From Acidobacteriota bacterium (GTDB lineage: Bacteria; Acidobacteriota; Vicinamibacteria; Vicinamibacterales; 2-12-FULL-66-21): a DNA stretch of 49,424 nucleotides. The DNA lies in contig JBKPRU010000021.1 of NCBI GenBank assembly GCA_046734675.1, positions 1-49,424 on the forward strand. Reading direction: 5' to 3'. The notes beneath the pieces were generated by a model. That model saw nothing but the letters and a program-made list of their open reading frames with translations. It was not told where the DNA came from and searched no databases. This document shows, in pieces, positions 6,114 through 48,638 of this stretch (position 1 is its first letter; every line of letters begins with the position of its first letter). The position numbers and the translations under genes were made by a program.

Positions 6114-8723
6114 CCGGCCGCTCCCCTCCGAGCTCCTGTAGCTTCCGCCTTCAGGCGGAAGTCTCCGCCGCGGCGCTCGCCAGACACTCATCGCCATCAA
6201 CAACAACGCTGTCACTGTCGTGATAGTTAGACCCGTGAACAGGTCGCGCGGTCTGAACCGGAACCGTATCACGTGGCGTCCCGGCGCGAGATGGACGGCG
6301 CGATACATGCCGTTCGCACGCGTCATCTCCGCGGCAGCGCCGTCGACCTCGACGCGCCACGACGGATCGTAGGAATCGCGCAGGACGAGGAACCCGTCGC
6401 GCTCCAGGCCGGCTTCGAGGACGACCCGGTTCTCGCCGTCCTCGACAAACCGCGCGAACGGCGGCACCGGCGCACCCGCGATTCCGGCGGCTGCCGGCAC
6501 GAACGGCACCCGCAGGTCATCGTCGGGTACCGTCGCATCGAACAGCGCACGCTGCTGCCATGCCGGGTCTTCGCCGGTTTTTGCCTTCGACGCGATGAAC
6601 ACGCGCGTCGCGTCCGGGTCGCAGTCGACGAGCCGCATCGACCAGTGGGGCACTGAAGCGATGGTATGCAGCCACGGGCGGGCGGCGTCCGGCAGCACGC
6701 ACCAGCGGACGCCGGAACGGCGCAGGAAAAGCTCGCGCTCGCCCGCCGTCGCGCGCTCGAAGCGGCGCACCAGCCCCTCGTACTCCGCCGGCCACAACAC
6801 CGGGAGATCGTAGGACAGCGCCTCGCGCACCTGCCACCCGGACGGCGCCATCGGCAGCTCCGCGTTCAACTCCATCCGCCCTTCGATCGCGGTCGGCTCG
6901 GCCGGGATCTCCCATTTCTTCGAGGCGTCGGGATCTTCCGCGTTCATGAACCCGCGCACCCGGCCGCCGATGTAGAGCCGCGAGTCCCCGGCGAGCGCCG
7001 TGTACCACTGCGGCGGCGTCAGCTTCGCCAGGTCCATGGTCAGGTTCAGATCGGCGTTGGTGACGACCAGGTCCGCGCACATCGCGGCAAGGAGCAGGTA
7101 TGCCGCCGCGTGCGCGCGCGAACCCGATGAGATCGCGATGGCCAGCAGCGTCGCGGCCGCGAGCAGCATCGCGGCGACGCGTGCCGCCAGCGGCGGCGCC
7201 ACGCGCAGCAGAAACGGCGTACCCGTCACCGGCTCCACGTGCACGCGTGTCGCCAGAGCGGCCACCGCGCGCTCCGCCCTGGCCGCCGCGACAATCGGCA
7301 GGGCAATCGCGACTCCGATCGCCATCGCGAGGACGACGCAGCCAAGCGCCACGAACTTGATGCGCCTCCGCTTACCCGCGTCTGCGAGCGCCGCCCAGCC
7401 GTCCGCCGCGAGCACCGCGACCGCAAACGTCGTCACGACGAGGTACTTCACCGGGAAGCGGAAGTACGTAAGCGGCGATAGCAGACGCCTTACCAGCGGG
7501 TAGAACGGCGTGTAGCCGCCCATCGCCGCCAGGAAGAAGAGGACGGCCAGCAGCGCCCAAACGACGTTTCGGCGCGGACGCGCGACCAGCCCGGTCGCCG
7601 CGAGCGCGAGCACGAGCGGCCCGACGTAGATGGAGTAATAGAACGGCTCGCGTCCGCTATTGAACGGCGCCATCCACGGCATGTCCGCAAGGAACGCGTC
7701 GTAGTAGTTGCCGAAGAGATGCGGCGCGACGACTTCGAGCGCGCCCAGCGGATGCAGCGACCAGAAATCCGGCGTCGCCATGTTGCCGCGATGCGCCTGC
7801 ACCCCTGCCATCATCGTCGGCCAGAGTTGCACGGCCGCGAGCAGCGCGCCGAGAAGCAAACCCGCCACGACCCATGCGGCGGCTGTCATGCCGGGTCTAA
7901 AGACCCGGCCTACGTGTGATCGAACTTGTCGGGTGTCGGCCGCATCTTTACTGGTGTAGCCCGAGTCTTTAGACCCGCCTTTCTCGACGTAGGCCGGGTC
8001 TTTTGACCCGGCGTTCTCGACGTAGGCCGGGTCTTTTGACCCGGCGTTCTCCACGTAGGCCGGGTCTTTAGACCCGGCAATCTGCCATCCGCGCCACGCC
8101 GCATACGCGACGGCGACGACGGCCGTCGACGCCAGCGTGACCGGCTCACCGCAGAGCGCCTGCAGTGCGACGGCGACGGCCAGCGTGGCGAGCCGCCGCA
8201 TCGACGGCGAGTCGATCAGCCGATCCGCCGCGAGCAGCACGAGCGGCATGGCGGCGACCGACCACGACAGGTTCGGCGCGTTGAGCATCGACACGATCGG
8301 TCCAGACAGTCCGAACGCGATCGCGCCGGTTGCTGACGCGGCGTCGCGGTGCGTGCGCCGCAGGAATGCGAACATGCCGAGGCTGGCAATCGGCAGGGGC
8401 AGCGCCACCCAGAGATTGAAGGACACGACCTCGGACGGGAGCAGCCGGATCAACGCCGTGATCGGCATGACCAGCTGGTTCAACGCGTCGGCGATCGCCG
8501 ACTGCCCCGCCGCGACGTAGGGATCCCACAGCGGGAACGACCCCGAGAAGACGGTGCGTCGAAACCAGAGGTGTCGCGACCAGAAGAAGAACGACAGGTC
8601 GCGGACGAAGAAGATCCTTGAGAGCGTGAAGAGGCCGGCGATCGGCACGATCGAGAGCGCGACGACGAGCCCGGCCCAACGCGAGCGGAGCAAACCGTGC
8701 GTTCGGGACGCCGGGTCGGTCAC
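5559..8723 (-). CDS. YfhO-family polytopic membrane protein, copy A (GT-C-like). The reading frame has no stop until the pilin stop at 5559.
   Basis: The GTG at 8723 overlaps the stop of copy B (GTGA). FFVRDLSFFFWSRHLWFRRTVFSGSFPLWDPYVAAGQS..., C-terminal VLRDSYDPSWRVEVDGAAAEMTRANGMYRAVHLAPGRHVIRFRFRP. It is colinear with copy B throughout. The expected end (after ...SVWRAPRRR, about 6160) has no stop codon. Confidence 0.7.
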   Translation of the reverse strand: MTDPASRTHGLLRSRWAGLVVALSIVPIAGLFTLSRIFFVRDLSFFFWSRHLWFRRTVFSGSFPLWDPYVAAGQSAIADALNQLVMPITALIRLLPSEVVSFNLWVALPLPIASLGMFAFLRRTHRDAASATGAIAFGLSGPIVSMLNAPNLSWSVAAMPLVLLAADRLIDSPSMRRLATLAVAVALQALCGEPVTLASTAVVAVAYAAWRGWQIAGSKDPAYVENAGSKDPAYVENAGSKDPAYVEKGGSKDSGYTSKDAADTRQVRSHVGRVFRPGMTAAAWVVAGLLLGALLAAVQLWPTMMAGVQAHRGNMATPDFWSLHPLGALEVVAPHLFGNYYDAFLADMPWMAPFNSGREPFYYSIYVGPLVLALAATGLVARPRRNVVWALLAVLFFLAAMGGYTPFYPLVRRLLSPLTYFRFPVKYLVVTTFAVAVLAADGWAALADAGKRRRIKFVALGCVVLAMAIGVAIALPIVAAARAERAVAALATRVHVEPVTGTPFLLRVAPPLAARVAAMLLAAATLLAIAISSGSRAHAAAYLLLAAMCADLVVTNADLNLTMDLAKLTPPQWYTALAGDSRLYIGGRVRGFMNAEDPDASKKWEIPAEPTAIEGRMELNAELPMAPSGWQVREALSYDLPVLWPAEYEGLVRRFERATAGERELFLRRSGVRWCVLPDAARPWLHTIASVPHWSMRLVDCDPDATRVFIASKAKTGEDPAWQQRALFDATVPDDDLRVPFVPAAAGIAGAPVPPFARFVEDGENRVVLEAGLERDGFLVLRDSYDPSWRVEVDGAAAEMTRANGMYRAVHLAPGRHVIRFRFRPRDLFTGLTITTVTALLLMAMSVWRAPRRRLPPEGGSYRSSEGSGRLEAPRLPTSGGGDAQQGFTLIELMIVLAIIGIVLAIAFATYRNMHARGNEASAIASLRSIAAAQWQFAQTCGSQKYAASLPALGQPVPQSGEAFLSPDLTSADQFEKSGYLFAMTAKPVDGAAPACNGTAVAEGYAVTADPATPGISGERFFAINADRVLYEDAETYLEKMPETGNPGKGTEIK
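6077..6161. repeat. Family B (REP-like) hairpins occupying the junction between YfhO-like A and the pilin domain
   Basis: GTAG + CTTCCGCC-TTCA-GGCGGAAG at 6138-6161. A degenerate CTCCGCCTGAAGTCGGAAG and GGAAGCC-GCGG-GGCTTCC lie at 6077-6110. Confidence 0.8.
7890..8078. repeat. Family B REP array inside the YfhO-A coding frame: four direct GTAG+palindrome units at exact 33-nt spacing (7956, 7989, 8022, 8055) plus one inverted unit (7890-7913)
   Basis: GTAGGCCGGGTCTTTTGACCCGGC repeated. On the coding strand it translates as GSKDPAYVENA x3 without a stop. This segment has no counterpart in paralogue B. Confidence 0.9.
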
Positions 8724-11258: not shown

Positions 11259-11783
11259 TTACTGAATCGCCGACGCGCCCGACGGGGTCGCCGTGTCGCT
11301 CATGCCGCTGAGCGTCGCCGTGCCCTGCCAGATCGTGCCCGTGGTGTTGGAGCCGAAGAAGCGCGTGCCCGTCGAGCTCGACGAGGGATCCGCCCAGGAG
11401 TGATAGCCGGTCGAGAGCGACGAAGACGCCGCACCGTTGCACGCGGTTGCCGTGCCGCCGCCCGCGCCGTCCATGCCGACCAGGTAGCCGCTCTTCGACG
11501 CCGTCGCGGCCGCGCCGAGGTCCGGGCTGATGAACGCCGAGCCGCCCGAGGGACCGCTGCCCAGAATGTCGAGGGTCTTCGCGTACTGGCCGTTCGCGCA
11601 GCTCGCCGAGAACGTCGACTGCGCGCTGCTGATGGCGCGCAGCGAACCAATCGCTGACGCCTCGTTACCGGAGATGCGCGCCCGCAGCAGACCCGGGACC
11701 GCGATCGCCGCGATGATGCCGATGATCGCCACGACGATCAACAGCTCAATCAGCGTGAAGCCTTTCTGATTACGAACCTTCAT
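11259..11783 (-). CDS. pilA: type IV major pilin, paralogue 1
   Basis: MKVRNQK/GFTLIELLIVVAIIGIIAAIAVPGLL... AGGAG lies 9 nt upstream of ATG 11783. Two Cys and a Ser/Thr-rich C-terminal third. Confidence 0.9.
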   Translation of the reverse strand: MKVRNQKGFTLIELLIVVAIIGIIAAIAVPGLLRARISGNEASAIGSLRAISSAQSTFSASCANGQYAKTLDILGSGPSGGSAFISPDLGAAATASKSGYLVGMDGAGGGTATACNGAASSSLSTGYHSWADPSSSSTGTRFFGSNTTGTIWQGTATLSGMSDTATPSGASAIQ

Positions 11784-11870
11784 AGTGATGTACTCCTGAA
11801 TCACTCCGTGTGGCCGTGTCCACGTCGCTCGCCGCTTCGGCCACCGGCATGCGGCATGCGCGCGCGAAGA

Positions 11871-11885
11871 GCAACGGCGATGCCA
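11871..11885 (-). promoter_or_regulatory. sigma54 (-24/-12) promoter for pilin 1
   Basis: The minus strand reads TGGCAT-CGCCG-TTGC, exact consensus spacing (TGGCAC-N5-TTGC), 88 nt upstream of the ATG. A sigma54 activator (pilR) is adjacent. Confidence 0.7.
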
Positions 11886-11982
11886 CGTCAGCTGTAGCTC
11901 TGGCTGACAAGGACAAGTAATGTGGGTGGAATCGGTTACAGAGTATTAGACGCGCGACGAGGATGGCTGGCCGGAGCGGGGA

Positions 11983-12013
11983 GTGACAACTTTTGTCACC
12001 CGGGGACTGACAG
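11983..12013. promoter_or_regulatory. candidate enhancer (PilR-type) site: GTGACAA-CTT-TTGTCAC inverted repeat plus CTGACAGG
   Basis: About 100-130 nt upstream of the sigma54 promoter. GACAA/TTGTC motifs also occur at 11903-11916 and in the equivalent position upstream of pilin 2. Confidence 0.35.
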
Positions 12014-12020
12014 GAAACGT

Positions 12021-12060
12021 CACTCAGAAAAGAGGGCCGGCCGGTATGCCCGGACGGCCC
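12021..12060 (-). terminator. candidate intrinsic terminator after pilin 2
   Basis: GGGCCG.CCGG-loop-CCGG.CGGCCC hairpin (12034-12060), followed on the minus strand by TCTTTTCTG. Confidence 0.5.
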
Positions 12061-12085
12061 TCGCGGTGCCGCGTTCCTGGAGGTG

Positions 12086-12610
12086 TTACTGAATCGCCGA
12101 CGCGCCCGACGGCGTGGCCGTGTCGCTCATGCCGCTGAGCGTCGCGGTGCCCTGCCAGATCGTGCCCGTGGTGTTCGAGCCGAAGTAGCGGGTGCCCGTC
12201 GAGCTCGATGAGGGATCCGCCCAGGAGTGATAGCCGGTCGAGAGCGACGAAGACGCCGCGCCGTTGCAGGCGGTCGCCGTGCCGCCGCCCGCGCCGTCCA
12301 TGCCCACGCGGTAGCCGCTCTTCGTCGCGGTCGCCGCTGCGCCGAGGTCCGGGCTGATGAACGCCGAGCCGCCCGAGGGGCCCGTGCCGAGCACGTCCAT
12401 CGTCTTCGCGTACTGGCCGTTCGCGCAGCTCGCCGAGAAGGTCGACTGCGCGCTGCTGATGGCGCGCAGCGAACCGATCGCCGACGCCTCGTTGCCGGAG
12501 ATACGCGCCCGGAGCAGGCCCGGGACCGCAATCGCCGCGATGATGCCGATGATCGCCACGACGATCAGCAGCTCGATCAGGGTGAAACCTTTCTGGTTAC
12601 GCATCTTCAT
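12086..12610 (-). CDS. pilA: type IV major pilin, paralogue 2 (near-identical tandem copy of paralogue 1)
   Basis: MKMRNQK/GFTLIELL... It shows 7 amino-acid differences from paralogue 1 over 174 aa in my alignment. GGAG lies upstream of ATG 12610. Confidence 0.9.
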   Translation of the reverse strand: MKMRNQKGFTLIELLIVVAIIGIIAAIAVPGLLRARISGNEASAIGSLRAISSAQSTFSASCANGQYAKTMDVLGTGPSGGSAFISPDLGAAATATKSGYRVGMDGAGGGTATACNGAASSSLSTGYHSWADPSSSSTGTRYFGSNTTGTIWQGTATLSGMSDTATPSGASAIQ

Positions 12611-12682
12611 GACAAACAACTCCTCTGGGCCCGCGACACGGGTTCGTGAAATCCGAGGGAACTTGCGAATGCCGGGAGTTGA

Positions 12683-12697
12683 GCAAGGGGGATGCCG
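12683..12697 (-). promoter_or_regulatory. sigma54 (-24/-12) promoter for pilin 2
   Basis: The minus strand reads CGGCAT-CCCCC-TTGC. The spacing and flanks (…TTGCTC) match the pilin 1 promoter. Confidence 0.6.
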
Positions 12698-12816
12698 CGG
12701 AGGGGTCGAGGTGCGGGTCGCTGCCGTCAAATCCCTTGAAGTCAGTAACTTACCAGCGACGTCGAGCGGTCATTCTCACCCTCGCGAGGGCCGGAATCGC
12801 AGGACAATTCGCGGCA

Positions 12817-12847
12817 CTGACAATTAGTGGCTGCCACGATTTGTCAG
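12817..12847. promoter_or_regulatory. inverted repeat CTGACAA-N17-TTGTCAG (candidate enhancer site for pilin 2)
   Basis: It has the same GACAA/TTGTC motif and a similar distance to the sigma54 promoter as at pilin 1. No T-tract follows, so it is not a convincing terminator. Confidence 0.35.
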
Positions 12848-12852
12848 TCGGC

Positions 12853-13362
12853 TCACTGAATCGGGATGCCGGTCGACGGCGTGGCCGTGTCGCTCATGGC
12901 GTTCAGCGAGGACGAGGCCTGCCAGATCGTGCTCGTGGTGTTCGTCCCGAAATAGCGGACGCCGCTGTTCTCGGAGACCGGGTCGGCCCAGGCGTGGTAG
13001 CCGTTCGCGAGCGCCGTGGTGCCGTTGCATGCGGGCGATCCGGACGCGCCTGCGCCGGCGAGCGAAATCGAATACCCGCTCTTGACGGCGGTTGGCGCGC
13101 CGCCGAGATCGACGCTGAGGAACGGCTCGGTCCCGGACGGTCCGGTGCCGAGGATGTCGAGCGTCGCCGCATACAGGCCGTTCGCGCAGCTCCTCGAGAA
13201 CGTCGCCTGCGCGCTGCCGATCGCGCGGAGCGAGGCGATCGCGGACGCCTCGTTGCCGGAAATGCGCGCCCGCAGCAGCCCCGGCGTCGCAATGGCCGCA
13301 ATCGCCGCGATAATCGCCACGACGATGAGCAGTTCGACGAGCGTGAATCCGTTCTTCTTCAT
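12853..13362 (-). CDS. type IV pilin, paralogue 3 (divergent)
   Basis: [52 protein letters not shown]... Two Cys. ATG 13362 overlaps the pilR stop (ATGA). Confidence 0.88.
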   Translation of the reverse strand: MKKNGFTLVELLIVVAIIAAIAAIATPGLLRARISGNEASAIASLRAIGSAQATFSRSCANGLYAATLDILGTGPSGTEPFLSVDLGGAPTAVKSGYSISLAGAGASGSPACNGTTALANGYHAWADPVSENSGVRYFGTNTTSTIWQASSSLNAMSDTATPSTGIPIQ

Positions 13363-16473: not shown

Positions 16474-16486
16474 CTTGGTTTTTCAC

Positions 16487-16538
16487 GTAGGCCGGGTCTT
16501 TGGACCCGGCGTGTGGCGGGCCTGAAGACCCGCCCTAC
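16487..16538. repeat. Family B REP pair in inverted orientation (BIME-like)
   Basis: GTAGGCCGGGTCTTTGGACCCGGC (16487-16510) and GGCGGGCCTGAAGACCCGCCCTAC (16515-16538). Confidence 0.9.
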
Positions 16539-16582
16539 ACCTGTGTTTTAGGACGCGCTTCGCGGCCTTCCGTCTTCTTTTC

Positions 16583-16688
16583 TCAATGCGCGTGGGGCCC
16601 CACCCCCACGCGCTTTACGCGCTTCTCGGCGGCCTTCTGTCTTTGTCGTTGTCTTCTGTCTTCCGCCTTCTGTCTTCTGTCTTCTCTT
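16583..16688 (-). repeat. Family A element, copy A2 (truncated) with a CTGTCTT/CCGTCTT simple-repeat tail
   Basis: Core hairpin at 16588-16613. The tail GTCTTCTGTCTTCCGCCTTCTGTCTTCTGTCTTC abuts the pilC stop. Confidence 0.85.
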
Positions 16689-17933: not shown

Positions 17934-17989
17934 GTAGGGCGCGTCTTCAGACGCGCCGTCCCCGAGGCGCACCTGAAGGTGCGCCCTAC
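17934..17989. repeat. Family B REP pair in inverted orientation
   Basis: GTAGGGCGCGTCTTCAGACGCGCC and GGCGCACCTGAAGGTGCGCCCTAC. Confidence 0.9.
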
Positions 17990-17996
17990 ACCTGTC

Positions 17997-19124: not shown

Positions 19125-19300
19125 GTGATCCTTTTTTCAATGCGCGTGGGGCCCCATCCCCACGCGCTTCACGCGCTTCGCGCGACGCCCTTCGTCCCTC
19201 GACGTCGCTCGGGACGACCCTGAGCTGTCGAAGGGTCGGGCTTGCCGCCGCGTCGCGGCGGCCGTCTGTCTTCCGCCTTCCGTCTTCCGTCTTCCGTCTT
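19125..19300 (-). repeat. Family A element, copy A3 (long form with a nested 44-nt insert and a CCGTCTT x3 tail)
   Basis: Core hairpin at 19142-19167, nested insert at 19195-19238, GCCGCCGCGTCGCGGCGGC at 19243-19261. It fills the whole pilB-pilT spacer. Confidence 0.9.
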
Positions 19301-21109: not shown

Positions 21110-21220
21110 CGTTCAGACCACCACTGGTCCACGAACTACTCGCGGGCGCCGGGAGAATTGCGGGGGAAGACTCTAAGAATACACGGGTGACAATTATTGT
21201 CAAGCTGGAAGTGCGACGGC

Positions 21221-21403
21221 GCCGGGTCTAAAGACCCGGCCTATGTGGAGAACCGATGGCGCCTCCAAGAGGCGCCCTACCGTCGGCCGATTCGCGTAAG
21301 TGGAGCAGTGGCGGTAGGTCGCACCCGGCCTGCGCGGAGCACCGGCGGTAGGGCGCACCTTCAGGTGCGCCTCCATAACGGCGCCTCTAAAGAGGCGCCC
21401 TAC
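21221..21403. repeat. cluster of four clear Family B REP units (plus one degenerate) in mixed orientation
   Basis: Units at 21221-21244, 21258-21280, 21348-21371 and 21380-21403, plus a degenerate unit near 21314-21345. Confidence 0.9.
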
Positions 21404-21418
21404 CGTCCGCACGCCGGC

Positions 21419-24636: not shown

Positions 24637-24815
24637 AGCGCTGCGCGGCGCGAGGCTACGGAGTGGGTCTCGTAGCATTCGAAGGCCGCCGCGAAGCGGC
24701 GGAAAGCCCCGACCCTTCGACAGGCTCAGGGTCGTCCCGAGCGACGTCGAGAGACGAAGGGCGTCGCGCGAAGCGCGTCAAGCGCGTGGGGGTGGGGCCC
24801 CACGCGCACTGAAAA
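24637..24815 (+). repeat. Family A element, copy A4 (long form; on the plus strand, i.e. again sense to the flanking genes)
   Basis: GCCGCCGCGAAGCGGCGG at 24686-24703, CGCGCGAAGCGCG, core hairpin at 24782-24807, then ACTGAAAA and the ATG at 24816. Confidence 0.9.
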
Positions 24816-32647: not shown

Positions 32648-32650
32648 CGG

Positions 32651-32894
32651 TTGTCAATGCCGAATGCCGGACACTGACGCTTGTCAATGCCGGAGGCTGA
32701 GGCTTGTCAATGCCGAATGCCGGACACTGACGCTTGTCAATGCCGGAGGCTGAGGCTTGTCACTGCCGAATGCCGGCGCTGACGATTGTCAATGGCGAAG
32801 GTCGAAGGCCAATCGCTTGGGGATTCCGGCATTTGGCACTGACGTTTGCCGTTCGGCATTGACAAGTGTCACACCCGGCATTTGGCATTGACAC
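32651..32894. repeat. Family D repeat hairpin: 53-nt unit (TTGTCAATGCCGAATGCCGGACACTGACGC + TTGTCAATGCCGGAGGCTGAGGC) x about 3, followed by the complementary arm
   Basis: Direct units begin at 32651, 32704 and 32757. The right arm (32826-32894) contains GGCATTTGGCA..., CGGCATTGACAAG and GGCATTTGGCATTGACA, complementary to the units. It fills the spacer between two convergent genes. Confidence 0.9.
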
Positions 32895-37242: not shown

Positions 37243-37287
37243 GTGCCCTTGCTTCCTTTCTATCGGACGGTCGGGGTTGAACGTCCG

Positions 37288-37329
37288 CCGGATCTGCGTT
37301 GAGCCCCCTGCCTCCCACCGCAGATCCGG
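37288..37329. repeat. perfect 11-bp inverted repeat CCGGATCTGCG-N20-CGCAGATCCGG in the rpsD-rpoA spacer
   Basis: Read directly from the sequence. A second stem, GGACG-N12-CGTCC, lies at 37265-37286. Confidence 0.8.
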
Positions 37330-37350
37330 GAAGGCTGCGGGCAAGGGGCG

Positions 37351-37419
37351 AAGCTGCCAGCTCCAGCTGCCAGCTCCCAGCGAAGACGCTGGAGGCGGGT
37401 AGCTGGCGGCTGCCAGCTT
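37351..37419. repeat. Family C simple-repeat hairpin, copy C1
   Basis: AAGCTGCCAGCTCCAGCTGCCAGCTCCCAGCG-AAGA-CGCTGGAGGCGGGTAGCTGGCGGCTGCCAGCTT. It overlaps the rpsD stop. Confidence 0.85.
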
Positions 37420-38047
37420 ATTTCGAATACAACTCGACGATCAGCTGCTCCTGCACCGGCAGGTTGATCTGCTCGCGGGTCGGGAGCGATGCGATGCGGC
37501 CGCTCAGCGTGCCGGCGTCGAACGACAGCCACTCGGGGATGCCGCGTCCCTTCACTTCCTCCATCGCGTGCTGGATGGACGGGTTCTGCGCGCTCGTGCC
37601 GCGCACCGCGATCACGTCGCCCGCCTTCACCGAGTAGGACGGGATGTCGACCTTGCGGCCGTTCACCGAGAAGTGTCCGTGGCGCACAAACTGCCGCGCC
37701 TGCGGACGCGAGGTCGCGAGCCCGAGCCGGTACACGACGTTATCGAGCCGCCGCTCGAGCAGCTGCAGCAGCGTCTCGCCGGTGATGCCGCGCGTGCGCT
37801 CCGCCGTCTCGAAGTAGCGGCGGAACTGGTTCTCGAGCACGCCGTAGATGCGCTTCACCTTCTGCTTCTCGCGCAGCTGCAGGCCGTAGCCGACCAGCTT
37901 CGCCTTGCGCAGCTTGCCGTGCTGCCCGGGCGGCAGGTTGCGCTTCTCGATCGCGCACTTCTCGGTATAGCAGCGTTCCCCCTTGAGGAACAGCTTCATG
38001 CCTTCACGGCGGCACAGCCGACACACAGGTCCGATGTAACGTGCCAT
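37418..38047 (-). CDS. rpsD: 30S ribosomal protein S4
   Basis: [36 protein letters not shown]... Confidence 0.93.
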
Positions 38048-38063
38048 TCTTTGCCCTCTAACG

Positions 38064-38197
38064 CTTGTCAATTCCGAATGCCAAATGCCGCCACCAAGAA
38101 CGCGTCAATGACGAGGTGCTCCGTTGCCGAACACCACCGGTCACGACGCCTTGGTCATTGGCATGTGTCATTCGGCATTCGGCATTCGGCATTGACG
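38064..38197. repeat. Family D hairpin, second locus (rpsK-rpsD spacer)
   Basis: Left arm CTTGTCAATTCCGAATGCCAAATGCC. Right arm GGCATGTGTCA(TTCGGCA)x3TTGACG. Inner stems ACCAAG...CTTGGT and GCGTC...GACGC. Confidence 0.85.
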
Positions 38198-38210
38198 CCC
38201 GCCGCGCTCG

Positions 38211-38675: not shown

Positions 38676-38683
38676 AGATGCTT

Positions 38684-38733
38684 GTCAGCTACCAGCTACC
38701 AGCTACCAGCTACCCGCTGGTGGCTGGCGGCTA
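38684..38733. repeat. Family C hairpin, copy C2
   Basis: GTCAG(CTACCAG)x3CTACC-CGC-TGGTGGCTGGCGGCTAC. Confidence 0.88.
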
Positions 38734-39105: not shown

Positions 39106-39107
39106 AA

Positions 39108-39187
39108 CTCAGCTCCCAGCTCCCAGCCTCCAGCTACCAGCGTCAGCGACCAGCTCAGTGCTGGTGGCTGGTGGCTGGCGGCTGACC
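39108..39187. repeat. Family C hairpin, copy C3
   Basis: CTCAGCTCCCAGCTCCCAGCCTCCAGCTACCAGCG...GTGCTGGTGGCTGGTGGCTGGCGGCTGAC. Confidence 0.88.
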
Positions 39188-39193
39188 GCCGTT

Positions 39194-39307
39194 TTATCCC
39201 TGCCTCTGCTTGTGCTTCTGGTTCGTGCAGATCACGCGCACCACACCGCGGCGGCGAATGATCTTGCACTTGTCGCAAATCCGTTTGACCGACGCTCGTA
39301 CCTTCAT
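39194..39307 (-). CDS. rpmJ: 50S ribosomal protein L36
   Basis: Not in the ORF track. My translation gives [37 protein letters not shown]. Its ATG overlaps the infA stop (ATGA). Confidence 0.9.
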
Positions 39308-39516
39308 AATTTTTGGACTATCCTTCCGCGGGTCAGGTCCCGCGGACTCAGCTCGAGCCGCACCCGATCCCCGACCAGCACGCGGATGAAGTTCTTTCCC
39401 GGTCCGCTCGGCGCGTGCGCCGTGACCTGCCGCGGCCCGTCAATCTCGACGCGATACTGCGCATACGGCAGCGACTCGCGGACGATGCCGTTGACGGAAA
39501 TCGCGCGTGTCATCAT
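39304..39516 (-). CDS. infA: translation initiation factor IF-1
   Basis: ...[63 protein letters not shown] (S1-like fold pattern), at the canonical position between map and rpmJ. Confidence 0.85.
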
Positions 39517-39626
39517 TTATTAATGCGCGTGGGGCCTCACCCCCACGCGCTCGACGCGCTTCCCGCGACGCCCTTTGGGCTTGCCGCCAGTTCGCGGCGG
39601 CCTGCCGATCTCATTCGGCATCGAGC
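39517..39626 (-). repeat. Family A element, copy A5
   Basis: Core hairpin at 39525-39550, only 8 nt from the infA ATG. GCCGCC-AGTTCGC-GGCGGC at 39583-39601. Confidence 0.9.
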
Positions 39627-42468: not shown

Positions 42469-42492
42469 GGCGGGTCTCAAGACCCGCCCTAC
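42469..42492. repeat. Family B REP unit (rplO-secY spacer)
   Basis: GGCGGGTCTCAAGACCCGCCCTAC. Confidence 0.88.
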
Positions 42493-42506
42493 ACGAAAAC
42501 CGGACC

Positions 42507-44111: not shown

Positions 44112-44131
44112 ATCGACTATTCCGTTCAGTC

Positions 44132-44184
44132 GTAGGCCGGGTCTTTAGACCCGGCGATGCGGCGGGTCTAAAGACCCGCCCTAC
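44132..44184. repeat. Family B REP pair in inverted orientation (rplF-rplR spacer)
   Basis: GTAGGCCGGGTCTTTAGACCCGGC and GGCGGGTCTAAAGACCCGCCCTAC. Confidence 0.9.
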
Positions 44185-44194
44185 GTGCTGAGGC

Positions 44195-44734: not shown

Positions 44735-44745
44735 GGGATATAGCT

Positions 44746-44828
44746 CTCAGCTTTCAGCCACCAGCTGCCGGCTGCCAGCGACCAGCGTCGTTCGTTCGCG
44801 CTGGTGGCTGGCGGCTGGCCGCTGACGG
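44746..44828. repeat. Family C hairpin, copy C4
   Basis: CTCAGCTTTCAGCCACCAGCTGCCGGCTGCCAGCGACCAGCG...CGCTGGTGGCTGGCGGCTGGCCGCTGAC. Confidence 0.88.
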
Positions 44829-45230
44829 CTACCACACATTACAGAGCACTTCGCCGCCGACGCCCGCCTTGACCGCCTCGCGGCCGGTCATGACGCCGCG
44901 CGACGTCGTCAGGATGCTGGTGCCGAGGCCGGCCAGCACGTCGGGCACTTCGTCGCGTCCGAAGTAGACGCGGCGGCCCGGACGGCTCACCCGCTGGATG
45001 CCGGTGATCACGCGCTCGCCGCGCGGCCCGTACTTCAGGAAGATCCTGAGGGTCGCCTGCGGCTCGCCGTTCTGCGGCTCCAGCACTTTCGAGCCCTGGA
45101 TGTAGCCTTCGCTCTCCAGGATGCGCGCGATCTCCACCTTCAGCCGGGAGGAGGGCATGTCGACCCGCGGATGCCGCGACTGGGTCGCGTTGCGGATCCG
45201 GGCGAGCATGTCTGCGATAGGGTCAGTCAT
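44829..45230 (-). CDS. rpsH: 30S ribosomal protein S8
   Basis: MTDPIADMLARIRNATQS... ATG 45230 with GAGG upstream. The track start is a TTG three codons earlier. Confidence 0.92.
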   Translation of the reverse strand: MTDPIADMLARIRNATQSRHPRVDMPSSRLKVEIARILESEGYIQGSKVLEPQNGEPQATLRIFLKYGPRGERVITGIQRVSRPGRRVYFGRDEVPDVLAGLGTSILTTSRGVMTGREAVKAGVGGEVLCNVW

Positions 45231-45248
45231 AAGCCTCAAACCTTCGAT

Positions 45249-45316
45249 GTCAGCTATCAGCTGCCTGCCTACCAGCTGCCAGCTTGCGGCTGGTCGCTGG
45301 GGGCTGGTGGCTTGTC
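45249..45316. repeat. Family C hairpin, copy C5
   Basis: GTCAGCTATCAGCTGCCTGCCTACCAGCTGCCAGC-TTGC-GGCTGGTCGCTGGGGGCTGGTGGCTTG. Confidence 0.85.
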
Positions 45317-45317
45317 C

Positions 45318-46051: not shown

Positions 46052-46380
46052 TTGTCTACCACTCCCTCGCACTTCCGGCAGATGCGGACCTTCCGCCCGT
46101 CGCCGAGGATCTTGCGGCCGATGCGCGTCGCCTTGCCGCACTCGGGACAGACCACCTGGACGTTCGACGCGTGCAGCGGCGCCTCGCGCTCGACGAGGCC
46201 TCCCTTGATCTGCCGCGCCGGGTTCGGCTTGGTGTGACGCTTGATGATGTTCACGCCTTCGACGATGACGCGGTTCTTCTCGGGCAGGACCTTCAGCACG
46301 CGTCCGCGCTTGCCGCGGTCCTTGCCGGTCATGACGATCACGTTGTCGTTCCGGCGCACGGGGGTTTGTAGTCTCGACAT
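46048..46380 (-). CDS. rplX: 50S ribosomal protein L24 (with a C-terminal CxxC...CxxC tail)
   Basis: ...[45 protein letters not shown]...CPECGKATR...CRKCEG. Confidence 0.92.
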
Positions 46381-46382
46381 TT

Positions 46383-46452
46383 GTCAGCTTCCAGCTACCA
46401 GCTACCAGCTATCAGCCTCCAGCTGCCAGCTTGCTGCTGGTGGCTGGCGGCT
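46383..46452. repeat. Family C hairpin, copy C6
   Basis: GTCAGCTTCCAGCTACCAGCTACCAGCTATCAGCCTCCAGCTGCCAGC-TTGC-TGCTGGTGGCTGGCGGCT. Confidence 0.88.
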
Positions 46453-46465
46453 TTCGCGCTCGCGC

Positions 46466-47708: not shown

Positions 47709-47723
47709 GCCAGTAATCCTCGT

Positions 47724-47820
47724 GTTCCCGGTTCCCGGTTCCCCGTTCCCGGTTCGTCTTCAGTTCACCGTTCGTGGTTCCGTGACCGGAACCCGGAAAT
47801 CGAACCGGGAACCCGGAACG
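47724..47820. repeat. simple-repeat hairpin, unit GTTCCCG (rpsC-rplP spacer)
   Basis: Left arm GTTCCCGGTTCCCGGTTCCCCGTTCCCGGTTCG. Right arm GACCGGAACCCGGAAATCGAACCGGGAACCCGGAACG. Confidence 0.88.
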
Positions 47821-47843
47821 TGAAACCTGGAACGACGGTTTTG

Positions 47844-48533
<690 letters not shown>

Positions 48534-48552
48534 GTGTGAACTCCCTCTATTT

Positions 48553-48625
48553 GCGATCAGTGATCTCTGAGTGGCGATTCACAAATCACCCCATTTCAAA
48601 TCACTAATCACTAATCACTAATCAG
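48553..48625. repeat. simple-repeat element, unit AATCACT x4 with a degenerate complementary arm (rplV-rpsC spacer)
   Basis: GCGATCAGTGATCTCTGAGTGGCGATTCACAAATCAC...AAATCACTAATCACTAATCACTAATCAG. It is strikingly AT-rich for this genome. Confidence 0.8.
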
Positions 48626-48638
48626 AAACGGCCTACGC

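Follow-up and report, generated by a model that had tools for sequence, protein, structure and literature searches.

A Polar Family of GC-Hairpin Repeats in Operon Spacers of Vicinamibacterales (Acidobacteriota)

Introduction

Several families of small repeats are known to occupy the spacers between bacterial genes. MIRU are units of about 40–100 bp that lie between cistrons, are co-transcribed with them, and are oriented with the genes; they are sometimes found in tandem and may be present or absent between relatives (PMC12548453; PMC3184786). Their insertion takes place at start codons and does little harm downstream (PMC12548453; PMC3184786). REPs are high-copy GC-rich extragenic palindromes; most of them separate co-directional or convergent genes and follow coding regions, and their transcription is probable. 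By definition, an unpaired GTAG or CGTC tag stands at one end of a 20–40 bp palindrome, and most REPs form inverted dimers (PMC3733652). The CGTC REPs have stems of 8–9 bp with A-T first pairs, loops of 4–5 nt, and a CCA tail (PMC3733652). The Neisseria REP2 and Borrelia IR elements contain two internal stem-loops, lie directly upstream of ORFs, and supply the ATG initiation codon (PMC3184786).

Here, we describe Family A, a repeat found on a single contig of 49,424 bp (65–69% GC), which is referred to below as the window, i.e., the whole stretch of DNA that was analyzed. Among the matches listed, the nearest relatives of the window were MAGs of Vicinamibacterales (Acidobacteriota subdivision 6), an order that is abundant in soil and whose genetics has hardly been studied. 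Family A is a genuine family of small repeats made of GC hairpins in these soil Acidobacteria and had not been described before; literature searches on the hairpin core and on repeats of Vicinamibacter or Acidobacteria returned no description of it. It resembles the known intergenic stem-loop repeats (MIRU, REP) and is not a new kind of system. It stands out for its strong transcriptional polarity, for a terminal module that does not vary throughout an order of soil bacteria, and for exposing a rapid turnover of operon junctions.

Copies of Family A in the Window

The terminal hairpin of the element, GCGCGTGGGGNTGNGGCCCCACGCGC, was found exactly five times in the window, at 794–819(−), 16588–16613(−), 19142–19167(−), 24782–24807(+), and 39525–39550(−), against an expectation of 0 in 100 shuffles. 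The window was searched, with filters off, using a covariance model, R1, which covers the terminal hairpin and 3′ tail and was derived from the alignment designated A2. The five copies, A1–A5, scored 60–68 bits, and the next match did not exceed 19 bits, which confirmed the number of copies given in the original prediction. All five are in the sense orientation, each within a spacer between co-directional genes, as had been proposed; A4, the only copy flanked by plus-strand genes, has the opposite chromosomal orientation to the other four. Pfam identification of the genes flanking A1–A5 agreed with the names assigned to them earlier. The intervals originally given for the copies delimited the correct spacers; however, they were whole spacers, and the elements proper have the coordinates given below. 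The remainder of the five spacers consists of heptamer arrays or other sequence, and in A2 and A3 the 5′ part is (GAAGACR)n.

Two copies represent a short form. A1 (777–871, −; 67.7 bits) separates the gene of a prepilin peptidase from that of a PAS/HisKA kinase, whose start codon (782–780) falls within the conserved tail of the copy. A5 (39508–39603, −; 62.3 bits), the most diverged copy, lies between map and infA, which encodes IF-1, and the infA start (ATGATG, 39516–39511) sits inside its tail. A2 (16572–16635, −; 67.1 bits), in the spacer between PilC and a PilS-like kinase, has undergone an internal deletion in which hairpins 1–3 collapsed, while the terminal hairpin and all of the tail, ATTGAGAAAAGAAGAC, were preserved. 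A second, partial copy (16551–16571) and GTAG REPs come after A2, and for this reason it abuts no start codon.

The long form is represented by A3 (19125–19263, −; 59.9 bits) in the PilB/PilT spacer and A4 (24683–24815, +; 63.5 bits) in the spacer between the HlyD-type and MacB genes, which are 94% identical across 100 nt. Read in the sense direction, A3 begins with hairpin 1, GCCGCCGC-GAC-GCGGCGGC, followed by hairpin 2 (GCCC...GGGC), whose loop carries a nested 44-nt module of two hairpins (GACCC..GGGTC and GTCCC..GGGAC; 19194–19237, −), and by hairpin 3 (CGCGC-GAA-GCGCG). The terminal hairpin (19142–19167) and the tail (19141–19125) complete the copy, and the tail runs up to the pilT ATG (19124). 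The two-hairpin module is common to A3 and A4, and a subfamily other than theirs contains part of it as well (locus L034). The tail of A4 comprises only bases +1 to +8 and is fused straight to the native macB ATG.

The stretch from the pilB stop codon to A3 (19264–19297, −) is a heptamer array rich in purines, (GAAGACR)n, which lies outside the conserved element; a similar array stands directly 5′ of A2 (16636–16685), and (GGGAAAA)n arrays occupy the same position in loci L027, L044, and L060. Given that the tail ends in GAAGAC/CAGAC, such arrays may be slippage products of the tail of an older copy. Beside the pilus assembly genes, three tandem paralogous genes (11259–13362, period of 761–827 nt) encode pilin-like proteins of ~170–180 aa with a conserved hydrophobic N-terminal segment.

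Structure of the Element

The constant part of Family A is its 3′ module, which includes a 26-nt hairpin, GCGCGTGGGG-GTGGGG-CCCCACGCGC, with a 10-bp GC stem and a G-rich loop, and a 16-nt A-rich, T-poor tail with the consensus AYTRAnAAAWGnnGAC. The tail is conserved up to position +16 and random further on, and it is also kept in copies that do not adjoin a gene; it is thus a part of the element, and the frequent ATG at +9 to +11 is therefore element sequence. The conserved AT-rich tail of the original prediction is present, but it is longer than had been described.

The sense layout of A1 and A5 is AGGC, hairpin 1, GGCAAG, hairpin 2 (GCCC-RAA-GGGC), GTC, hairpin 3 (CGCGC-GAA-GCGCG), a linker of 3–4 nt, the terminal hairpin, and the A-rich tail. 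The hairpin string predicted earlier is present in the window, and nine related copies fold to it. The upstream part is modular: its modules reappear in differing combinations, and further subfamilies exist. In a set of 89 copies among the matches listed, collected with the core GGGG(G)TG(G/A)GGCCCC and complementary outer stems, 40 begin with AGCGCCTGCGG and 15 are of the window type. When the window-type copies were folded singly, the three upstream hairpins formed in every copy while the sequence varied; stem 1 differs in both sequence and length (8–11 bp), and hairpin 2 alternates between GCCC/GGGC and GGCC/GGCC. The RNAalifold prediction on a MAFFT alignment of these copies mis-paired hairpins 1–3 and was discarded, and the three-hairpin layout is that of the single-copy folds. 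The 26-nt terminal hairpin, by contrast with the variable upstream modules, is identical across ~40 species among the matches listed. The covariation counts of the terminal hairpin were positive but inflated, since the search patterns demanded complementary stems, and we give them little weight.

The folds of A3 on its two strands are about equally stable (−85.9 vs. −83.3 kcal/mol), and for the family, sense folds are slightly more stable than antisense ones (−38.4 vs. −36.0 kcal/mol, p = 2e-5). The G-U pairs number 197 and 209 on the two strands, i.e., the sense strand is not preferred, and a strand-specific RNA structure is unsupported by G-U asymmetry. As folding and G-U pairs are about equal on both strands, stem pairing does not reveal the functional strand. 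The asymmetry of the strands resides in the unpaired parts, the sense strand being purine-rich and T-poor (G 3381, C 2639, A 2119, T 1079).

Comparison of Orthologous Junctions

The pilB–pilT junction was compared in 80 relatives, represented by PilT-containing metagenome contigs. The closest of them, L109, is syntenic with the window at 86–88% nucleotide identity, and its junction reads pilB-TAA-CTT-ATG-pilT, as against the 176-nt spacer of the window; its pilC–kinase spacer is 54 nt long vs. ~215 nt in the window. In several other relatives, the pilB–pilT spacer measures 0–3 nt or the genes overlap, and in many more it contains unrelated heptamer-repeat palindromes. The syntenic contigs L196 and L199, whose MacB is 93% identical, have a macA–macB spacer of 53 nt with a GTAG REP and a 134-nt heptamer palindrome at pilB–pilT, both without Family A. 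Their macB starts with ATGAACCAG, and the MacB homologues (120 among the matches listed) are 400–408 aa long, nearly all of them 408 aa. This conserved start and the homologue lengths imply that A4 stops at position +8 of the tail, right on the native ATG. At map–infA, the relatives have either an ATGA overlap (L189–L191) or a 60-nt spacer (L192), and the pilD–kinase gap corresponding to the A1 site is 118 nt in a relative according to the gene table. A search with R1 of 521 kb of the PilT-selected relatives and L189–L200 detected no copy of Family A.

Insertion-like positions were also found outside the window. Seven of the ~30 copies of the AGCGCCTGCGG subfamily examined among the matches listed abut or overlap the upstream stop codon, and the element in L032 fills exactly the interval between stop and start. 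No target-site duplication is visible at the A3, A4, and A5 junctions relative to the empty sites. Terminal inverted repeats were not found, the 5′ ends (AGGCYGC or AGCGCCTGCGG) not being complementary to the 3′ end (..AAAWGnnGAC).

Judging by these comparisons, Family A is polymorphic between close relatives, and one junction holds different repeats in different genomes. The presence/absence pattern indicates spread into operon junctions, and it is from this pattern that the putative mobility of the family is deduced. The appearance of spacers filled by the element and of start codons abutted by it is largely due to insertion at junctions that were originally of 0–3 nt or had overlapping genes. 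The original description of a mobile intercistronic module agrees with these data, as the element is dispersed, modular, polar, and insertion-like, and is absent from the orthologous spacers of relatives.

Other repeats are present in the window. Canonical-looking GTAG REP hairpins were found at 7887–8083, 16477–16545, 17934–17995, 21220–21254, 21335–21416, 42469–42498, and 44114–44190; their forms are GTAGGCCGGGTC-TTTA-GACCCGGC and GTAGGGCGCACC-TTCA-GGTGCGCC, and they often make inverted pairs of the BIME/REPIN kind. Heptamer-repeat palindromes fill spacers of the ribosomal-protein operons (37243–37417, 38676–38730, 39106–39303, 44735–44828, 45210–45317, 46360–46465, 47709–47843, and 48534–48638) and are built of 7-nt tandem units (CAGCTAC.../...GCTGGTG, GGTTCCC, GATTAGT). 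The palindromes at pilB–pilT of the relatives are of the same kind but of different sequence. In their heptamer units, such palindromes are reminiscent of the cyanobacterial STRR repeats. A separate family with 53-nt units (TTGTCAATGCCGAATGCCGGACACTGACGC...) forms arrays at 32648–32894, in a convergent spacer, and at 38000–38210, in the alpha-operon region. Family A, the heptamer palindromes, and the GTAG REPs together show a fast turnover of operon junctions.

Distribution and Orientation of the Family

When one genome from each GTDB species was searched for the stem enclosing any loop of 4–8 nt, at least 108 loci were obtained, ~80 of which have the same G-rich loop and belong to ~40 Acidobacteriota/Vicinamibacterales assemblies. 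The terminal module was counted at least about 90 times in the 8-kb loci from ~40 Vicinamibacterales assemblies. Streptomyces, Chloroflexota, and other groups also matched the pattern, but with different loops, and these hairpins are unrelated. One typical window-type copy was found on a 6.4-kb contig binned as Phycisphaerae (L052, JAICTV010000271.1), which is probably a mis-binned Vicinamibacterales contig. Tandem arrays of Family A occur in L006, L016, L056, and L072. In L035 (3532–3622), two terminal hairpins stand head-to-head, 4 nt apart, with their tails outward, which is the sole REPIN-like inverted pair in the sample.

A search of the whole window against Rfam 15 at gathering thresholds gave no match, and the best result of a permissive search was the sub-threshold RF01696 Chlorobi-1. 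IMG/VR contained no exact match to Family A, and a phage origin is thus unsupported.

For the analysis of orientation, genes were called with a codon log-likelihood caller trained on the long ORFs of these loci, which gave a sensible gene map of the window. The loci were picked by exact-match pattern among the matches listed, and their copies are phylogenetically non-independent. Among the matches listed, 43 copies in co-directional spacers with a called gene on both sides were sense and 5 were antisense (binomial p = 1.4e-8); six further copies of those listed lie in convergent spacers and five in divergent ones. The stringent calls, with well-supported genes within 400 nt, gave 29 sense and 4 antisense copies (p = 1e-5) among the same matches. 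The five antisense copies in co-directional spacers among the matches listed are all at least 115 nt from the next start codon, whereas 24 of the 65 sense ones stand no more than 20 nt away. The statement that the element always lies sense to transcription therefore holds for the window, where it is true of five copies out of five, whereas for the family it has to be weakened to ~90% of the copies in co-directional spacers.

A3 and A4, which are 5.5 kb apart and on opposite strands, are each sense to their own operon, and L036 displays the same pattern. As the orientation flips with gene direction, the bias follows transcription and not one strand of the chromosome. This result bears on the question of whether Family A could be a single-stranded DNA element of the REP or IS200/IS605 type, in which a HUH (RAYT-like) transposase reads the hairpins on one strand and the polarity arises from insertion. 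The stems of Family A contain GCGAAGC and GAA loops, which are very stable in DNA and would suit such an element, as would the nesting of hairpin modules within the loops of other hairpins, the tandem arrays, and the GTAG REPs that share spacers with Family A and are replaced by it at macA–macB. However, an orientation that tracks genes over 5.5 kb is not what reading of one chromosome strand predicts. The conserved hairpin has no adjoining GTAG or CGTC tag, and hairpin 3, which does follow CGTC, has a GC stem of 5–6 bp vs. 8–9 bp with A-T first pairs in CGTC REPs (PMC3733652). Most units stand alone or follow one another head-to-tail, unlike the inverted dimers of REPs, and no transposase gene was noticed within the 8-kb loci around the copies. 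We therefore regard this origin as quite improbable.

Start Codons and Translation Leaders

Four of the five copies in the window abut a start codon, and the gaps of 11, 17, 8, and 8 nt to the kinase, pilT, macB, and infA reported earlier are correct, as is the lack of a Shine-Dalgarno sequence in three of these four; pilT has AAGGA. Elsewhere in the genome of the window, Shine-Dalgarno sequences and canonical U-tract terminators are used. For the family, the next co-directional start lies 1–300 nt from the terminal hairpin, at a median of 41 nt, among the matches listed. Thus, while the census of orientation strongly favored the original prediction (43 vs. 5), abutment fared less well, as only 24 of the 65 copies listed lie within 20 nt of the downstream start. 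Both the sense orientation and the ending at a start codon are strong tendencies of the family, not rules.

Among the matches listed, the spike of distances at 8 nt corresponds to the tail ATG being called as a start, and a coding ORF begins at this ATG in ~14 of 45 copies, near the one-in-three chance of being in frame. With these proportions, and with the ATG at A4 being the native macB start, a role of the tail ATG as a dedicated start codon throughout the family was rejected. In the window, pilT, macB, and infA have element sequence alone before their start codons, from which it follows, given the conserved ORFs, that the tail must be compatible with initiation. It is fairly safe to say that these three genes would initiate from element-derived leaders. 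The predicted N-termini of IF-1 in Vicinamibacterales vary (MFERDPREEERH..., MTS..., MMTR...; 65–80 aa; window 39304–39516, P0001–P0080), and the variation tracks the content of the map–infA spacer. Many annotated starts may be artefacts of repeat-derived ATGs.

Such leaders raise the alternative that Family A is an adaptive cis-acting RNA module, close to the model of the original prediction. The invariant hairpin and tail would then be the site of a conserved host factor, an RNase or RNA-binding protein, and the module would set the expression of neighboring cistrons via protection of the upstream 3′ end or partial attenuation and provide an SD-independent initiation region. The leaders of pilT, macB, and the essential infA are consistent with this possibility, and so are the slightly greater stability of the sense folds and the perfect 26-nt hairpin in ~40 species with variable upstream modules. 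In addition, the same orthologous spacers are occupied in several genomes, with differing upstream modules: rplL–rpoB in L054 (2138–2294), L078, and L033, the thiolase–acyl-CoA dehydrogenase spacer in L020 and L029, where the two copies differ by four compensatory stem swaps, and the region upstream of prfA in L094 and L097. Such sharing could reflect retention for function. The copy at rplL–rpoB begins directly at the rplL stop codon; in E. coli, this position is that of the classical attenuator, and the spacer is a known processing site. Nevertheless, close relatives with the same operons have no element in the respective spacers, the distance to the start varies from 1 to 300 nt, and the tail ATG is used at about the rate expected by chance. 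The G-U pairs show no strand asymmetry, ~10% of the copies have the antisense orientation, others occupy convergent or divergent spacers, and the covariation of the terminal hairpin is inflated by the ascertainment of copies. We consider an adaptive RNA module possible, although rather unlikely.

Terminator-Like Configurations and Probable Origin of Polarity

The strands of the element differ in their resemblance to intrinsic terminators. Among the matches listed, 15 of 89 copies were terminator-like in the antisense direction vs. 3 of 89 in the sense direction. Antisense A3, in which hairpin 1 adjoins CGTCTTC repeats, headed the list of terminator-like sites in a 20-kb scan of the window and had the most G-C stem pairs (8); antisense A2, with hairpin 1 and pyrimidine-rich heptamers, also scored as terminator-like. 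In the same 20-kb scan, no site was detected on the sense strands of A2 and A3 (−) or A4 (+), where the hairpins are followed by A-rich sequence and no U tract. A sense-strand intrinsic terminator was therefore rejected.

These data could be read as a one-way insulator, which lets sense transcription pass and terminates antisense transcripts entering the operon from downstream. The behavior of A2 and A3 and the excess of terminator-like antisense copies fit this reading, but it concerns a minority of copies, relies on the flanking heptamer arrays outside the element, and finds no evidence for antisense promoters, so that we hold it to be highly improbable. Nor can termination alone explain the 90% bias, because only 17% of the copies are terminator-like in antisense.

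The explanation that we favor, with somewhat better than even confidence, is that Family A is a spreading interspersed repeat, of which selection retains mainly the insertions that spare both operon read-through and downstream initiation. As the presence/absence comparisons show, copies spread to transcribed spacers, very often to the stop/start junctions of a few bases found in operons, and are then co-transcribed with the flanking genes. The polarity would most likely be a survivorship effect acting on mRNA. A sense copy would place an unstructured A-rich leader of 8–17 nt before the start codon and no hairpin followed by a U tract, thereby preserving read-through and initiation. An antisense copy would set a GC stem against the downstream start, its hairpins then being followed by pyrimidine-rich or C-rich terminator-like tracts. 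The tail would thus be the feature that renders sense insertions harmless. By analogy with REPs, the upstream cistron is probably also shielded from 3′ exonucleases by the element. The dual role suggested in the original prediction, a stabilizer of the upstream cistron and an SD-independent landing pad for the downstream one, may be plausible, but it is not general to the family.

One observation runs counter to the favored explanation of a spreading repeat filtered by selection: the identity of the hairpin across dozens of species exceeds what a decaying selfish repeat needs, and its perfect conservation points to a conserved partner. With this in mind, a bolder proposal can be formulated, which we consider unlikely, namely that Family A is a mobile operon-junction cassette whose invariant hairpin and tail are recognized by a putative conserved factor of Vicinamibacterales, and that this cassette targets stop/start junctions and brings an SD-independent start region. 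If so, essential genes such as infA would come to depend on Family A, and the family would be an independently evolved MIRU-like strategy that uses RNA structure instead of an internal coupled ORF.

The strongly polar repeat as the only leader of genes such as infA, pilT, and macB offers a natural experiment on the sequence context needed for initiation. Family A explains the long structured "intergenic" regions and ambiguous start codons in the annotation of these MAGs, and it is a ready marker for strain typing, cf. MIRU-VNTR.

Comparison With Known Repeats

RF01696 Chlorobi-1 RNA resembles Family A in having a GC hairpin whose loop is of the (A)UGGGG type and which precedes an A-rich run. 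However, A3 scored 22.1 bits (E = 4e-4), far under the 50-bit gathering threshold, with nothing matched to the model's first hairpin; membership in this family was therefore rejected.

With MITEs, Family A shares neither terminal inverted repeats nor visible target-site duplications. The Neisseria REP2 and Borrelia IR elements bring a promoter and a ribosome-binding site and are situated at the heads of operons, whereas Family A lies inside operons and displays no promoter-like site and no Shine-Dalgarno consensus. With REPs, Family A has in common the genomic niche, including the very same spacers in the window. Yet the bases before its terminal hairpin are variable and do not form a tag, and hairpin 3, which stands after CGTC, has a 3-nt loop and no CCA tail. 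Family A occurs singly or in direct tandem, with one inverted pair (L035), and differs from REPs in being a composite of at least four hairpins with a fixed polar tail.

The closest functional analogue of Family A is MIRU. Both are intercistronic elements of ~40–100 bp that are co-oriented with genes (43 vs. 5 in the family and five of five in the window), are sometimes tandem, are polymorphic between relatives, and are found at start codons. The MIRU ORF overlaps at its two ends with the stop and start codons of its neighbors (−4 coupling), whereas no ORF recurs consistently in Family A: only 51 of 89 copies have a TRA stop at +3 to +5 of the tail, and the three frames are similarly open, so that a coupled ORF of the MIRU type was rejected. 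Family A has strong GC hairpins and an A-rich tail, and no tetranucleotide direct repeats were seen in it. By its description, MIRU is thus set apart by a different host phylum and a different architecture, while it remains the known repeat that Family A most resembles in function.
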